This document shows, one piece after another, positions 5,219 to 13,128 of a stretch of 64,000 nucleotides of DNA (its first letter is position 1; every line of letters starts with the position of its first letter). The translations under genes were made by a program, and so were the position numbers. The notes under the pieces were generated by a model. It made no database searches. It saw only the letters and a program-made list of their open reading frames with translations, and had not been told where the DNA came from. Location: NCBI GenBank assembly GCA_000165345.1, contig CM000429.1:96001-160000 (forward strand), given 5' to 3'.

Positions 5219-8017
5219 ATGAGATATTTATTTCTGGCTATTTTTTATTTATTTACCTTATACACTTCACTAATTTATCCAGTTAGTTATGGTTCTAATT
5301 ATTATCAAGCCATTAGTGAAGTTTCTTTGGTAAAACTTAAGACTCTCCCCAAAAATAAGACTGGAGAAAATGGTAGTGGTAAACCAGCTACCCCTAAAGT
5401 AGGATCAAGACCTTCAGCTGTAGGAGGTTCAACTACTTCAGGATCTAGCAGTAAACCTAGGGTTACTATACCAAGACCATTAGGGCATAGCGCCTCTTCA
5501 TCTTCAAGAGTTGTCTCGGGAGCTACGCAAGGGCCTTCAAAAAGAAATAATCAACCTAAGCCAAATGAATCTGGAGCTACAGGAGATCCTTCTGATAAGT
5601 CTGTAGGAACTCCATCTACAGGCTTGTCTACACCAAAAGAGGGGCAATCAGGAGTACAACCTCCATGCGGTGAACCATCTCAAGAGGGAATACCATCTCC
5701 ATGTTTAACATCAAATTCGGCAGCAGGAGGAGTTTCTGAATCCAAGTCATCTACATCTAGCCCAAAGCTTACTACAAAACCAGCACCACTTGGAGTAGCA
5801 CCAAAGCCGTCAGCACCATCTAGGCCAACGAAACCTTCGGGGCCTCTAGCAGGAGTAAGACCACTAGGATCTGGAGTAACATCAAAACCATCTGCACCAT
5901 CTAGACTATCAAAACCACTGGGACCTGGATCAGGAGTAAAACCATTGGGATCTGGAGTAACGCCGAAGCCGTCTGCACCATCTAGACCATCAAAACCACT
6001 GGGACCTGGATCAGGAGTAAAACCATTGGGAACTGGAGTAACGCCGAAGCCATCAGCGCCATCTAGTTCATCAAAACCACTGAAGCCTGGATCAACAGGA
6101 GCATCAAGAGCATCGGCAACAGGAGTAGCACCAAGAGTATCGGCAACAGGGTTAACAAAACCGACATCGTCAGGTTTGTCAAGAGCGTTTTCATCAGGGT
6201 CATCAAAACCATCGACTGGGGGATTATCTAAACAATTGGTAACAGGAACGACAAAATCTTCTGCAGGATTAGGAGCAAGACCGAAATCATCACTACCTAC
6301 TACCAGAGCTTCTCAACCCAAAACCAAACTCGGTACTACAACAACTAGAACTCGTTCTAGGTCTAGGAGCAGATCTAGGAGTAGAGATAGATCTTCAGGT
6401 GGCCATCATCCTCTTGAATCTACAAAACCAGGTTGCAGCGGTGAAACAGGAGATAAAGGAGGTTCAGGTGAGGACCGTTCATCTGGAGGATCATCTGGTG
6501 GTGCATCAGGAGGAGGAGAAGGAGGAAGTGGCGAATCAGGATCCTATGGAGGAAGTGGAAGTGGAGGCGGTGACGATAAAGGAGACAAAGGCAATAACTC
6601 AGGAAGAGGAAGATACGGAATATCTATCGACTCTTCTGGTTCTAGTTCTGATTCTGATTCTGATTCTGATTCTGATTCTGATTCTGATTCGGATTCTAAT
6701 TCTGATGATGAAATTAGAGATGCAGTTTCTTTTGCTGCCATACCTTCCGTCACACTTTTCTGTAGAGAAGTCATTAATTTCGTCACCAACCCCGGTAAAA
6801 CTACCCTATCTTTTGAACAAAATAAAGCCTCTTCACTCGATTATGTTGAAGGGTATTTTTATAAGTGGGAGGCTATCCTGAAAATGTTAAAAAAAAGACT
6901 AGAATCCTTGATTAGGAGGTTTGAGGCGTTGGGTTGTGAAGGTCCAGAAGCTAAAAAAGACCGTAAACTGCAAAAATTATGCCAAAAATTAGAGGAAAAA
7001 ATCAGAGATGTTGAAAGTTCCATCTACTTAGCTAAAAGGAAAATCCACAAACTAAAAAAATGTTTGAAAAAGATTGCAAAAATTGAAGAGGAAGAAGAAG
7101 AAGAAGCGCGTGCACCCAAGAAACATCGTAGAGCTAGGAGGTCACAATCTGATTTGGAAACAGGACATAAAGATTCTCAACAAGAAGCAGGAAGCTCCAG
7201 TGACGAAGATTCATCTCAAAGAGAAAAATACCCTAAAAGACGTTCTAAGAGAGGAAGAAGTGGAGTGGCTGTGAAATCACTCGACGAATCAGCTCTTGGT
7301 GCAGTTGGGGGTCAGCCTTTGGACGGTTCTTCGCTTGAATCCAGAAGTTCAGGCTCCACTTCCAGTCTTGATTCCACAAGCTCCAGTTTATTGGAAAATT
7401 CTGAATCAAGTGTAAGACCTGATCCAGAAAAAGTGCCTGTATATAATGGAAAGGTTATTACTCCTTCTCTTATTTATGAAGAGATAGAATCTTCTCGACG
7501 TCACTGCAAAAGAATCTTATCCTCAATTGGAATTGTAAGCGAAGAAGATTTATCGCAAACTCTAGAACAATTTGGTGTCACAGTATCGGCTTTAAAATCA
7601 TTACTTAGCTCTAACTCAGAAAAGATGTTACAAACTCGAGAGAGATTACTTGAACTTAATCAAAAAACTGGAGAATGTACAAATTCTGGACGTGAAGTAA
7701 AAAGGTGTGAAGTGCGCGCTTTATCTTTGAAATTGAAAAGTGAAATCTACGAGGGTAAGCTGTCTGTTCTAGAAGAATGCCTTTTAAAGATATTAGAAAA
7801 AGTTGTTGAATTGGAACTTGAATATCTATTACCCCAAGTTAAATCAATGGCTTGTAAATTCCATCCTGAGCTCGAACAAACTGTTGAAGAAACTGATCAG
7901 GGAGATGGAAATGATGGCGAAGATGATGATGAAGATGATGATGAAGATGACGATGATGAGGATGGGACCCGATATGATTCTGAATTTTTGAAAGAACTTA
8001 CGGATGATGATTCTTAA
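5219..8017 (+). CDS. secreted mucin-like Ser/Thr/Pro-rich glycoprotein with tandem repeats and an acidic C-terminal tail (932 aa)
   Basis: N-terminal signal peptide MRYLFLAIFYLFTLYTSLIYPVSYG. About 27-aa tandem repeats (KPSAPSRPSKPLGPGSGVKPLGSGVTP) x3, RSRS run, Gly-rich block, (SD)n block, a KEKIRDVESSIYLAKRKIHKLKK coiled segment, and a DDDEDDDEDDDDED tail. Confidence 0.65.
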   Translation: MRYLFLAIFYLFTLYTSLIYPVSYGSNYYQAISEVSLVKLKTLPKNKTGENGSGKPATPKVGSRPSAVGGSTTSGSSSKPRVTIPRPLGHSASSSSRVVSGATQGPSKRNNQPKPNESGATGDPSDKSVGTPSTGLSTPKEGQSGVQPPCGEPSQEGIPSPCLTSNSAAGGVSESKSSTSSPKLTTKPAPLGVAPKPSAPSRPTKPSGPLAGVRPLGSGVTSKPSAPSRLSKPLGPGSGVKPLGSGVTPKPSAPSRPSKPLGPGSGVKPLGTGVTPKPSAPSSSSKPLKPGSTGASRASATGVAPRVSATGLTKPTSSGLSRAFSSGSSKPSTGGLSKQLVTGTTKSSAGLGARPKSSLPTTRASQPKTKLGTTTTRTRSRSRSRSRSRDRSSGGHHPLESTKPGCSGETGDKGGSGEDRSSGGSSGGASGGGEGGSGESGSYGGSGSGGGDDKGDKGNNSGRGRYGISIDSSGSSSDSDSDSDSDSDSDSDSNSDDEIRDAVSFAAIPSVTLFCREVINFVTNPGKTTLSFEQNKASSLDYVEGYFYKWEAILKMLKKRLESLIRRFEALGCEGPEAKKDRKLQKLCQKLEEKIRDVESSIYLAKRKIHKLKKCLKKIAKIEEEEEEEARAPKKHRRARRSQSDLETGHKDSQQEAGSSSDEDSSQREKYPKRRSKRGRSGVAVKSLDESALGAVGGQPLDGSSLESRSSGSTSSLDSTSSSLLENSESSVRPDPEKVPVYNGKVITPSLIYEEIESSRRHCKRILSSIGIVSEEDLSQTLEQFGVTVSALKSLLSSNSEKMLQTRERLLELNQKTGECTNSGREVKRCEVRALSLKLKSEIYEGKLSVLEECLLKILEKVVELELEYLLPQVKSMACKFHPELEQTVEETDQGDGNDGEDDDEDDDEDDDDEDGTRYDSEFLKELTDDDS
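6648..6706 (+). repeat. GATTCT hexamer microsatellite (about 9 units) encoding (SD)n inside the mucin-like CDS
   Basis: gattctgattctgattctgattctgattctgattcggattct. Confidence 0.8.
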
Positions 8018-8808: not shown

Positions 8809-10057
8809 TTAATGAAAATAATCATTAATTTCAATCTTTGATTTCAATGTAATGGCATCACTGACTTGAACTCCAATGGCACCAATGATCTGGATAACAA
8901 CATTCTGAAATTTGTTTGAAATTTTAAAATGTTTCACGAATAATTATTTAGATATGGCAAATATTTCAAAAAAAAAAACTTACAAGTAATGATGTGTAAA
9001 GAACACGATTGATTTTTGTAGATGATTGCTCTGGAGACCAATTGATTAACAAATTATGATTATTTTGCATATTAAATAGATACAATGATGGTACAGTTAA
9101 AACTGAAGTTATATCTTTAAATTTTTGTCTAATGGGTATGATATTAATTGTCTTTGACGTAATAGTCTTAGAAGAAGGGAATAGAAGTTAATGTGTGATA
9201 TTTTTGTTTAAGTTTAAGACTTACTATTTTAACACAAGTTAATTGATTTTCCATAAATAAGCTTATGGTTTCGTGAGAACTGGATGACAATGTCAATGAA
9301 TTAATCTTGAAGATAATATCTTTGTATTGATAAGGAGAGTATCTCGTAGATTGGCATATACTTGACTTGGGATCGTATGAAATGGAGGAATAATTGAATG
9401 CTTTAAATATTTTTGAATCTTTTTCTATATTCTTATGAACCATTATTTTAAAATTCAACTCACTAAGTTTATTGATTTCTGTTTCCTTAACTATATTGTT
9501 TGGAATACAAGAAATCAAACAGAGTATATCTTCGTATACTTGTTTAAATAATTCAAATAGAATGATTTGATTATTATCAATTCTTGTAGGTAAATATTTA
9601 ATTATAAGACTGAAATTTGTATTTTTATTTGTTATGATTTGAAATTTGATGATTAAGTTAAACATTACCTTAAATACTTTGAAAAGTATGCCCCATTAAT
9701 TAATATTATTCTAAAATCATCTTTGTAATCTCTAATTTTATCATCAGATCTCAGAAACTGACAAATATTCTCAAAGAGCTCTCCTGTTGAAACAACTCCA
9801 AAGGAATTTCTTTCTGTTGCCAATATTTGGTCCAATGGTATTTCTATTTTTTGTTCTATTTCACATTTTGGGACTAGTAATTCTTTACCATTTGAATCAC
9901 TTTCTTGAAATTTGCCGCTCAAATCAAATTCATGTTTTTGTATTTTCATGATTAATGCATTCATTTTATTAATTTTCTTAGATTTTACCCCTTCGTTAAA
10001 AAATTCCATCAACTTCTCCTCAAATAGACTGCTACCTACTAATACAAACTCACTCAT
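8809..10057 (-). CDS. four-exon gene, ~350 aa hypothetical protein: join(10057..9669, 9609..9225, 9166..8984, 8904..8809) on the minus strand
   Basis: Track ORFs 9665..10057 and 9168..9665 overlap as G-TAA-TG. Intron 1: donor AAG|GTAATG at 9668, acceptor caaatttcAG at 9610. Intron 2: donor AAAATA|GTAAGT at 9224, acceptor ttcttctaAG at 9167. A third frame then stays open for 61 codons to CTT|GTAAGT (8983), with acceptor aaatttcAG at 8905 and a final exon NVVIQIIGAIGVQVSDAITLKSKIEINDYFH*. Total 1053 nt = 351 codons. Confidence 0.45.
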
Positions 10058-10500
10058 TTTGATACTTTATTGATTAAATTGGCTTCCTAACTTATTTGAG
10101 TTTTTAACATTTTATTTATCAATTTTGTTTTATTATATAATTTTTGAAAACATCATGCCTAATGCTGCATGCATTCTTTTTTTTATGGCAGTTTAGGCGG
10201 GAAGTCAATTAGAGAGGGGAGGAATAAAGTGGAAAAATTAAAAAAAGTAATTATGATTATGGGATATGAAATTAATTAATAGAAAAAGAATGATTGGTAA
10301 ATTATTGGTAGTATTGAATATAATTAGATGTAAGAATTGATTATTTATATATTTTCTACTAAAAAGTAATATGATTACAGAGTAGATTTTGCTTAAGTTT
10401 TAAAAAAAGTACGTGTGCATGTGAATTTTCTCCAATTATATGTGGGGTAGTAATGAATAATAAAACTTATTATAAATCTATTATAATTTAAAAATTATCT

Positions 10501-11305
10501 TTATTTTTTATTAATAACACGATCTTTTGTTTCAGTCAAAGTTGGATAATTATCAGTGAAACACTGAGTATAGCACTTAATCAAGTCATGGTCTTTATTT
10601 AAACTATTTAGAAGATCCTTAGGTTTCTGTTTGTATATAAATTATTTATAAAATAAGGAGAAGAAATTTTAACAAAAAAAAAATTGTCATTTTGTTGCAA
10701 GTAGATATAAAGTTAAGTAAATTTTGCCTTAATAATTATTAGCTTACCTTAAATAGATTTTCGAATTTATTGAAACACAGTTGGTGGCAATTCATCACAT
10801 TTTCGTTAATAATATTTAATTCTTGATTAACTTTATTTTGAAAGGTTTCAAGAGGATCTTGACATTTCTGCATTATAATGGAAAACCAAACAAAGAAAGA
10901 AAATCCAATATAAAAAAAGTATAATCATTTTTATTAAATTTTGCTATTATCATTAGTTTATTAACATACCTTTAGACAATCTTGAATATTTTCTAATGAT
11001 TTTTTTTTGTCTGAATTTTTTAAGTATTTTGAAATACAATTTGAAGAGCATTCAAAAGCTTTTTTCTGGTCATTTAGAGTAGAGAATGTGATCTAATTAA
11101 AAAAAAAGTTTTGCAATTTTATACGTAACAATCAGCATTCAATGGCATGAATTATAGATTAAGTATTAAATCAAGTATTATTAAAACTAGTTTTGGAAAG
11201 GGGAGGAATGAAACATACATCATCAACTTGATCTTCAAATTTTTTTCTGAAATCTCCAATATATTCCTCAATTTTATTTACTAAGTCAATTGTAAAATTT
11301 GACAT
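10501..11305 (-). CDS. FAM136A/DUF842-like protein with four CX3C motifs (151 aa), four exons: join(11305..11219, 11092..10970, 10867..10748, 10626..10501)
   Basis: No track ORF. Exons end in GAT|GTATGT, AAG|GTATGT and AAG|GTAAGC. Acceptors are ttaattAG, ataatgcAG and acaaacAG. Spliced protein MSNFTIDLVNKIEEYIGDFRKKFEDQVDD-ITFSTLNDQKKAFECSSNCISKYLKNSDKKKSLENIQDCLK-KCQDPLETFQNKVNQELNIINENVMNCHQLCFNKFENLFK-KPKDLLNSLNKDHDLIKCYTQCFTDNYPTLTETKDRVINKK. The four CX3C motifs align with human FAM136A (FRCSASCC, QCIERCHVPL, RCTMHC, SCVTKCVDD). 456 nt = 152 codons. Confidence 0.6.
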
Positions 11306-11787: not shown

Positions 11788-13128
11788 ATGAATATTTCAT
11801 CATTTAGAATAAAAAGAAGGAAAAAAAGTGAGGATGACGATGATGAGAAAAAAGATAGTTCAAGCTATGAGGAATTACTGGAAGTTATTGCACCAATAAA
11901 CAAATTTAAGAGTAAGCCAGCATTAGGAGTAACTACATTTTCAAGACAAATGTGGTGCGAAAAAAGCTTAGAAATTTGTCTCGAAAATAATATTAAAATT
12001 ACAAGTAAAGCTATTGAAGAAGGTATTAAACACCATGAAGAATTAGAGCTAGAAGATCACCAAGTTCTCAGTGTAATGGTAGAGAATGAATACGAGAAAA
12101 TGGCAATTGAAATTTTAAGTATAGTAAATCTATTGGATGGGTTAATTGAAAGAGGATATATTCGTGAGCTTCCAATAATTGGATTTTACAAAGGAATAAT
12201 GTTAAGGGGAATAATTGATTCATTACAATTAAAACCAAAATTAAATGGAATTGGAGAAACTAATAATGTAAAATATTCATCAAATAACATCAACAAGTTT
12301 ATTATTTTGATATCAGATACAAAAACTAGAAGAAATACAACTCTTCCAAGTAATGTTCAGCAAAAGACTACAGTTCTACAGCTTGGATTGTATAGAAAGA
12401 TATTGGGTGAAATGATTAATTTTGGAAAAATCTGGAAATCTTGCCATCCTAATTTAATTGATTCCAATGCAATTAAAAAATATTTGAATTCTTCTTCAAC
12501 CATAGATTTGTCAAACTGTTGCTCTGGTTGCAGTTTCCTAAATAATATTTTCGAGTTTCATGGATTAGACCCATTAATTTCTTTTTCAATATTTCAAGAA
12601 TTGGAAGATGCAAAAAGAAAGCAATCTTGTAAAGAAAAAAATGATATTTGTGATACAAATCAAGACCAAATTCAAACCGAAACACATTCTGAGACAGAAT
12701 CTGTAGTTGATACTGACGGGAAAAGCGTCCTAAAAGAGTTTGAAAACGCCCTTGAAATTGGTTTTAACATGTTACTTTGCTTCTCAAAACTTCCAGATAT
12801 TCAGTCAGAAATGAAAGTTGAATACGATTGCCAAGGTAAAACTTTCGCTACAAAATGGTATAAGTCTTCAGAACAGACTATTGAGCTTGAACTAGATTAC
12901 TTATTGGGTTGGTGGCTTGGTGCTAGAGAAGCTGAATTTGTTAGAATCTCAGAGGCATGGAAATGTAAGTTTTGTAATGTAATTGAATATTGCCAAGTAT
13001 GTCCTCTTTCAAAAGAAGAAAAAGAGAAATGTATTGAAAAAATACGTCAAGACGAACTAGAGTCATTACTAATTAAAGATTTGGAAGAATCATCTAATGA
13101 GCATATTTTAACATTAAATTGTTCATAA
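11788..13128 (+). CDS. EXO5: Exonuclease V (Exo5/DEM1 family; PD-(D/E)XK nuclease with Cas4-like 4Fe-4S cysteines), 446 aa
   Basis: N-terminal VTTFSRQMWCEKSLEI (the WCE motif of Exo5). C-terminal C-x2-C-x5-C (CKFCNVIEYC) plus the N-terminal Cys gives the one-plus-three cysteine FeS pattern of Exo5/Cas4/AddB nucleases. Basic KRRKK N-terminal tail. Confidence 0.65.
   Translation: MNISSFRIKRRKKSEDDDDEKKDSSSYEELLEVIAPINKFKSKPALGVTTFSRQMWCEKSLEICLENNIKITSKAIEEGIKHHEELELEDHQVLSVMVENEYEKMAIEILSIVNLLDGLIERGYIRELPIIGFYKGIMLRGIIDSLQLKPKLNGIGETNNVKYSSNNINKFIILISDTKTRRNTTLPSNVQQKTTVLQLGLYRKILGEMINFGKIWKSCHPNLIDSNAIKKYLNSSSTIDLSNCCSGCSFLNNIFEFHGLDPLISFSIFQELEDAKRKQSCKEKNDICDTNQDQIQTETHSETESVVDTDGKSVLKEFENALEIGFNMLLCFSKLPDIQSEMKVEYDCQGKTFATKWYKSSEQTIELELDYLLGWWLGAREAEFVRISEAWKCKFCNVIEYCQVCPLSKEEKEKCIEKIRQDELESLLIKDLEESSNEHILTLNCS

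Follow-up and report, generated by a model that had tools for sequence, protein, structure and literature searches.

Two neighbouring hypothetical genes on Cryptosporidium parvum chromosome 1 are probably one four-exon gene with a predicted tandem ADF-H product

The DNA analysed here, referred to below as the window, is a 64,000-nucleotide (nt) stretch of Cryptosporidium parvum chromosome 1 (GenBank assembly GCA_000165345.1, contig CM000429.1, positions 96,001 to 160,000 of the forward strand), and all positions are counted from its first letter. On the minus strand at 8809-10057, in AT-rich surroundings (~26% GC), lie two open reading frames (ORFs), 9665..10057 (130 amino acids, aa) and 9168..9665 (165 aa), which share a single base (G TAA TG) and which appear in the Iowa II annotation of 2004 as the separate genes cgd1_490 (XP_627907) and cgd1_480 (XP_627906). 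The original prediction, made from the letters alone, was that these two frames and further coding sequence downstream form one gene with four exons. When the ORFs, the donors (9668, 9224 and 8983) and the acceptors (9610, 9167 and 8905) were recomputed, all coordinates matched the sequence, and the single gene was borne out by conservation of the splice sites, by exons that keep the frame, by substitution ratios and by the annotation of orthologues. On this comparative evidence, the locus is very probably one protein-coding gene of four exons.

Exon 1 (9669..10057, 389 nt) carries codons 1-129 plus 2 nt, and corresponds to the old cgd1_490 without its stop codon. It is followed by intron 1 (9610..9668, 59 nt, GC 0.19), which opens with GTAATG after an exonic AAG and closes with TTTCAG. 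Exon 2 (9225..9609, 385 nt) carries codons 130-258 and leads into intron 2 (9167..9224, 58 nt, GC 0.28), running from GTAAGT after an exonic ATA to TCTAAG. Exon 3 (8984..9166, 183 nt, codons 259-319) is the third frame which had been predicted to stay open for 61 codons. Intron 3 (8905..8983, 79 nt, GC 0.19), with GTAAGT after an exonic CTT and TTTCAG at its end, separates it from exon 4 (8809..8904, 93 nt plus TAA = 96 nt), the predicted last exon of 31 codons (320-350: NVVIQIIGAIGVQVSDAITLKSKIEINDYFH). The four exons, all on the minus strand, add up to 1053 nt (389 + 385 + 183 + 96), or 350 codons plus TAA, and the spliced frame has no internal stop. VLYTSLLNVVIQIIGAIGVQVSDAITLK is a junction peptide of the spliced product.

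All three introns are of the GT-AG type, starting with GTAATG or GTAAGT and ending with CAG or AAG, and their removal restores a single open frame. Intron 1 holds both the TAA that stops cgd1_490 and the ATG that starts cgd1_480. The first 19 codons of the second ORF had been predicted to be intronic; this stands for about 18.7 codons, codon 19 (AGT) straddling the acceptor, and the split codon that is rebuilt across intron 1 is that of Ser130. At the other end, intron 2 takes in the final 18 codons of the old cgd1_480 ORF, so that some 37 of the 165 codons of this ORF (~22%) are intronic.

The orthologous Cryptosporidium loci were then fetched. Five species were aligned at the DNA level, and six further loci, from C. 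hominis, C. felis, C. xiaoi and three other assemblies, were searched in a frame-aware manner for GT..AG combinations. In the five-species alignment each of the six splice dinucleotides is kept at the homologous position. The search of the six further loci, those of the distant C. felis and C. xiaoi among them, yielded the same introns 1 to 3 together with a conserved exon 4, and exon 4 is present in 11 of 11 loci (in C. xiaoi, for example, as KTIIELVGALGIFVNNSHTIKARNELFEYLH). Among the five species exon lengths vary only by multiples of 3 (389/386, 385/382/379, 183/180 and 93 nt for exons 1 to 4), as do the indels within exon 2. The lengths of introns 1, 2 and 3 vary freely (54-74, 52-64 and 72-79 nt, respectively), and in other loci intron 1 spans 54-134 nt and intron 3 60-80 nt.

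The pattern of substitution in the five species follows the same boundaries. Mean pairwise identity is 0.72-0.77 in the exons compared with 0.52-0.60 in the introns and flanks, and third codon positions are the most variable in every exon. Exon 4, with zero indels over its 93 nt, has an identity of 0.77 against 0.54 in the 3' flank, and the variable fractions at its codon positions 1, 2 and 3 are 0.45, 0.23 and 0.74. The Nei-Gojobori ratio of non-synonymous to synonymous substitution (dN/dS) is 0.20 for exon 1, 0.27 for exon 2 and 0.10 for each of exons 3 and 4. The start is conserved across the orthologues (MSEFV/MGEF/MDEF), and in all of them the position of the stop is kept to within about 1 codon.

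The splice motifs carry little weight by themselves: GTAAGT occurs 30 times in the window where 22 +/- 4 would be expected by chance; it is the conservation across Cryptosporidium that lifts the pattern above chance. In intron 2, ATAGTAAGT is conserved in 5 of the 5 aligned species. In intron 3, the donor GT[AG]AG and the acceptor [CT]AG or AAG are conserved in 11 loci. Reading through intron 3, in contrast, gives tails that differ from species to species (VSFFF, VSFL, VSS and VSFLKYPPF, each then meeting a stop, and a 45-residue tail in C. canis). C. parvum introns average 84-99 nt with 22% GC (PMC4637869), and the size and composition of the three introns fit these averages. The comparative data thus support, at the level of the sequence, both the reality of intron 3 and the inclusion of exon 4 in the product.

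Existing annotations of this gene differ from one another. The spliced protein matches a 324-aa "uncharacterized protein" of C. parvum (CPATCC_0038920 in the IOWA-ATCC annotation, cpbgf_100490 in BGF) with 100% identity over 91% of its length. In both of these models introns 1 and 2 are spliced and intron 3 is read through, the protein ending in ...LLVSFFF followed by a stop; the peptide stretch that distinguishes the four-exon product from this 324-aa product is NVVIQIIGAIGVQVSDAITLK. The two-gene split of Iowa II is found also in several C. hominis and C. tyzzeri annotations and in another C. parvum annotation, and the 2015 re-annotation keeps cgd1_490 and cgd1_480 separate (Isaza et al. 2015; PMC4637869 supplement). 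The full four-exon product is annotated only in chipmunk genotype I (ELE39_003318, 348 aa) and C. ryanae (FG386_000067, 334 aa). Three annotated models, that of chipmunk genotype I among them, use intron 1. Other models depart from the pattern in their own ways: that of C. canis stops wrongly in intron 2 (KIVSL and a stop), that of C. ubiquitum has a spurious internal intron which deletes part of exon 2, that of C. felis keeps part of intron 1, and in C. hominis UKH1/TU502_2012 exon 2 is joined straight to exon 4, exon 3 being skipped and exon 4 present. The deposited models thus disagree in five ways across the species, and judged by the sequences a single four-exon model fits all of them.

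The exact 350-aa product was absent from a collection of 15 billion proteins and was in none of the C. parvum, C. hominis, C. tyzzeri and C. meleagridis records retrieved; no model retrieved from C. parvum, C. hominis or C. meleagridis has intron 3 annotated, and it is read through instead, to VSFFF or the like. The merger of the two ORFs is already part of current annotations; among the retrieved records, what is new for these last three species is intron 3 and exon 4. The introns of the IOWA-ATCC annotation are reported to be 100% supported by RNA-seq (Baptista et al. 2022; PMC8744675), a statement which covers introns 1 and 2, since both are in that model. For these two introns there is thus an RNA-seq-guided annotation in addition to the sequence and its cross-species conservation. 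The records of this gene bear the names hypothetical or uncharacterised, and none of the deposited proteins has been given a Pfam domain.

What the product might be was approached through an alignment of 10 full-length orthologues. The original prediction had assigned no family, and it remains the case that nothing reaches a Pfam gathering score, but hidden Markov model and profile searches do point to the ADF-H (cofilin) fold. Pfam Cofilin_ADF (PF00241) was the sole recurrent family match, found in 7 of the 10 orthologues at residues ~282-343, across the exon 3/4 junction. The best score was 19.7 bits (E 7e-4, for the C. canis orthologue), and C. parvum scored 16.2 bits. A sequence search of the PDB with the family profile gave a single weak match, to trypanosome cofilin over the same stretch as the Pfam match; an earlier profile search had given none.

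For a more direct comparison, we used hhalign against a reference ADF-H alignment which consisted of nine sequences, each confirmed by Pfam as Cofilin_ADF (E 1e-12 to 6e-42), and real twinfilin domains. Residues 215-350 aligned to this reference with a probability of 80% (P 1.4e-5, score 36.0) over 84 columns, again spanning the exon 3/4 junction. By comparison, the score averaged 11.6 +/- 2.5 in 100 column-shuffled controls and never exceeded 20.6; it was 16.8 for the reversed alignment and fell to 32.3 when exon 4 was left out. Because the match runs across the exon 3/4 junction, correct splicing is a precondition for recognising the domain.

Exon 3 encodes an invariant LINWSP[DE]Q...Y motif. 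No part of the protein is more conserved than the start of the long helix: in the orthologue alignment W301, S302, P303, Q305 and Y315 are invariant, and T308, N311, R312 and V313 nearly so. In the hhalign alignment R312, which is R or K in all orthologues, pairs with cofilin K114, and Y315 with Y117. Together with the predicted structure, the sequence profiles make the assignment of residues ~235-350 to an ADF-H domain well supported.

For the structure, the chipmunk genotype I orthologue (348 residues, 76% identical) was modelled, standing in for the C. parvum protein, using AlphaFold2 without templates and a 17-row alignment of Cryptosporidium sequences only. An earlier run on a 5-row alignment had given a predicted local distance difference test score (pLDDT) of 31 and was discarded. 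The 17-row model has a mean pLDDT of 67.7, with values of 70-90 in the cores of two domains. Both of these, at model residues 14-188 and 239-347, follow the order helix-strand-strand-helix-strand-strand-long helix-strand-helix, which is that of ADF-H, a fold with a mixed sheet and flanking helices; between them, residues 185-231 have a pLDDT below 50 and form a linker. A Foldseek comparison of the model with the PDB ranked full-length twinfilin first (7ccc_B; E 5e-10 over 383 columns); behind it, with a probability of 1.0, came single ADF-H domains from cofilin, twinfilin, GMF, Abp1 and coactosin. The model thus predicts, for residues ~10-190, a second domain of ADF-H-like type, which is far more divergent and has a lengthened beta-hairpin. 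A tandem of two ADF-H domains, joined by a disordered linker of ~45 residues, would be the domain architecture of twinfilin.

The exons can be placed on this model. Exon 1 covers the N-terminal ADF-H-like domain from helix 1 to strand 3, including the long beta-hairpin. Exon 2 completes that domain, supplies the variable linker of ~45 residues and opens the C-terminal domain with its initial helix and strand. To the C-terminal domain exon 3 adds strands 2-4 and the long helix up to its middle, and exon 4 the rest of this helix together with the final strand and final helix. Intron 1 accordingly splits the N-terminal domain between two adjacent strands, and intron 3 splits the long helix of the C-terminal domain. 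It follows from these positions that the two-gene annotation cuts one domain in two and the 324-aa model truncates the other. With intron 3 falling inside the central helix, a 324-residue product would lose the last third of the C-terminal domain.

We describe the predicted protein as twinfilin-like in architecture, and do not term it a twinfilin orthologue. The likeness to twinfilin (mouse Twf1, PDB 7ccc chain B; Entamoeba twinfilin, 6k2f) consists in the two tandem ADF-H domains, and is seen in the predicted structure only. Several features set the two apart. A tail at the C terminus which binds capping protein is listed in reviews as part of twinfilin (PMC10638096), whereas the Cryptosporidium protein has no such tail, His350 being its final residue, where the last predicted helix finishes (residues 339-347 of the 348 in the model). 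Its N-terminal domain lacks detectable ADF-H sequence similarity and carries the long beta-hairpin insertion, and searches with the Cryptosporidium family as query recovered zero twinfilins. From ADF/cofilin (PF00241; Trypanosoma brucei cofilin 2lj8, Leishmania cofilin 7q8s, Plasmodium ADF1/2), the protein differs in having two domains instead of one of ~120-165 residues, in staying below the Pfam gathering threshold, and in that, of the two basic residues where the long helix begins, only one is in register.

These results suggest a scheme for how the gene might work. Three short AT-rich introns would be spliced from the pre-mRNA to give the 1053-nt frame and the 350-residue protein. ADF-H domains bind actin largely via the start of the long helix. 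The stretch W-S-P-[DE]-Q...T-[KR]-x-[NS]-[RK]-V-x-Y lies at this very position and R312 is aligned with cofilin Lys114, and on these grounds we infer that the C-terminal domain most likely binds actin monomers or the barbed ends of filaments. In so doing it would help to control the turnover of the parasite's short and unstable actin filaments. The N-terminal domain may be degenerate, or it may bind another partner. Lacking the C-terminal tail, the protein should not bind capping protein in the way that canonical twinfilin does. Taken as a whole, the reading that joins a four-exon gene, a twin-ADF-H product and a role in actin regulation appears to us reasonably probable. More specifically, that Cryptosporidium possesses an unrecognised, extremely divergent and tail-less twin-ADF-H regulator of actin, of the twinfilin type, is a tentative proposal, to which we would give somewhat less than an even chance.

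A number of results weigh against one part or another of this combined reading. With respect to the fold, all the Cofilin_ADF matches, the best included, lie below the gathering threshold of 22.4 bits. In the long helix the second of the basic residues, K309, is shifted by one position relative to cofilin. The N-terminal half gave no significant hhalign match to ADF-H, whether used whole, without the hairpin or as sub-segments (P 0.26-0.52), and a test for an internal repeat found no similarity between the N and C halves; the N-terminal assignment comes from one medium-confidence model, made from 17 shallow and closely related rows. With respect to descent, there was no homologue outside Cryptosporidium among 1.84 billion representative proteins, and a profile of the 10 orthologues run against 5.8 billion proteins added only C. 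ryanae and nothing from outside the genus. The two domains may accordingly reflect descent from twinfilin or a lineage-specific duplication of ADF-H. Against vertebrate twinfilin, hhalign gave a probability of 24% (P 8e-4), the twinfilin reference being shallow and from vertebrates only. With respect to function, Leishmania twinfilin showed no actin binding in the one study cited (PMC7581878). With respect to the gene model, the RNA-seq-guided IOWA-ATCC and BGF annotations both end the gene inside intron 3, and retention of this intron may be a real or even the dominant isoform. The spliced exon 3/4 junction had zero matches in metagenome contigs, an outcome which was expected and is uninformative.

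Of the alternatives, the one that survives best accepts the four-exon gene and takes its product to be specific to Cryptosporidium and unrelated to actin. The motif match would then be a weak one, combined with a bias of AlphaFold towards the common alpha/beta sandwich, or the ADF-H fold would have been reused for some other partner. This would fit with every sequence match falling short of curated thresholds, with an N-terminal domain that gives no sequence signal, with a model alignment that is shallow (17 rows from one genus) and was preceded by a meaningless first model from 5 rows (pLDDT 31), and with the report on the Leishmania protein (PMC7581878). We consider this unlikely, but it is the alternative to be taken most seriously.

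A three-exon gene, with introns 1 and 2 spliced and the product stopping at VSFFF after 324 aa, would leave the 31-codon frame outside the main product, or confine it to a minor isoform. This is the model deposited for C. parvum IOWA-ATCC and BGF and for C. meleagridis; the annotation that is its source, and whose introns are reported as fully supported by RNA-seq, omits intron 3 (PMC8744675), and the splice motifs of intron 3 are of a kind that is frequent by chance. Set against this are the conservation of the donor and acceptor of intron 3 in all 11 loci and the behaviour of exon 4 itself, which over five species has no indels, a dN/dS of 0.10 and an identity well above that of the sequence downstream (0.77 versus 0.54). 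The read-through tails, in contrast, vary among species in both length and sequence. The truncation would moreover halve the long helix of the ADF-H domain, and exon 4 is in use in the chipmunk genotype I and C. ryanae annotations. The three-exon gene therefore seems distinctly improbable as an account of the main product. Finally, that cgd1_490 (130 aa) and cgd1_480 (165 aa) are two independent unspliced genes is hardly credible, and on the sequences compared is already contradicted: several genomes have a separate protein deposited for each ORF, and the supplementary table of Isaza et al. 2015 lists the two apart, yet the first ~19 and last 18 codons of the 165-aa ORF evolve like non-coding DNA (indels that are not multiples of 3, identity 0.52-0.55), the stop of the first ORF and the start of the second sit within a GTAA donor that is conserved, the two are merged in newer annotations, and in the model the N-terminal domain is one fold over the junction, where strands 116-124 and 127-135 make up a hairpin across intron 1.

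The four-exon gene is flanked by the mucin gene cgd1_470 and by a DUF842 gene, and the order Exo5, DUF842, four-exon gene, mucin is kept in most of the orthologous loci. The mucin is, by position, a 932-aa ORF on the plus strand (5219-8017) with a start that resembles a signal peptide, long repeats rich in Ser, Pro, Gly and Thr, and acidic tails; its local GC is 0.41, compared with ~0.26 nearby, and it has no significant Pfam match. cgd1_470 has been called mucin 8 and reported to be highly polymorphic (PMC9317183). On the far side, also on the plus strand, an unspliced ORF of 446 aa (11788-13128) is clearly that of an exonuclease V (E 6e-54 to Pfam Exo5) with a C-terminal cysteine cluster, CKFCNVIEYCQVCP. 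Between this and the four-exon gene, the minus strand (10500-11305) has no more than short pieces of ORF, for example 11171..11305 (MSNFTIDLVNKIEEY...) and 10739..10873. At the matching position the orthologous loci have a spliced DUF842 (PF05811) gene of ~150 aa, and the region looks like another multi-exon gene that is fragmented in the ORF track. Local synteny is different in the C. bovis/xiaoi/ryanae clade; in C. xiaoi, a gene for the Rpc34 subunit of RNA polymerase III is called upstream of the orthologue, in place of DUF842/Exo5.

The most immediate consequence is the correction of a gene model in a major diarrhoeal pathogen, in which two "hypothetical proteins" would be one gene. Population-genomic and dN/dS tables still treat cgd1_490 and cgd1_480 as separate genes, and current reference models lose the last 31 residues. 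Literature searches returned nothing on cgd1_490, and cgd1_480 only as a polymorphic hypothetical gene. The latter is listed among the 'highly polymorphic genes' (PMC9317183) and has been given a dN/dS of 0.42, compared with 0.036 for cgd1_490 (Isaza et al. 2015 supplement; PMC4637869). The intronic codons contained in the cgd1_480 ORF may explain part of both the high dN/dS and the polymorphic listing.

Apicomplexans are reported to have roughly ten-fold fewer actin-binding proteins than opisthokonts, and the reviews list profilin, ADF, CAP, coronin, capping protein and formins for them; twinfilin is not on these lists, and further divergent regulators are expected (PMC12713339, PMC10638096). 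We found no twin-ADF-H assignment for this gene in annotations or in the searchable literature. The protein would have stayed hidden because its gene is split or truncated in every retrieved C. parvum and C. hominis annotation. CRISPR tools now exist for C. parvum. If the proposed identity is true, the gene would add a new component, possibly specific to the genus, to the 'minimal' apicomplexan set of actin regulators, and its degenerate N-terminal domain may have acquired a new partner. A twin-ADF-H protein without a tail, confined to Cryptosporidium as far as we could detect, would then be a candidate regulator of the actin dynamics used in gliding and invasion.

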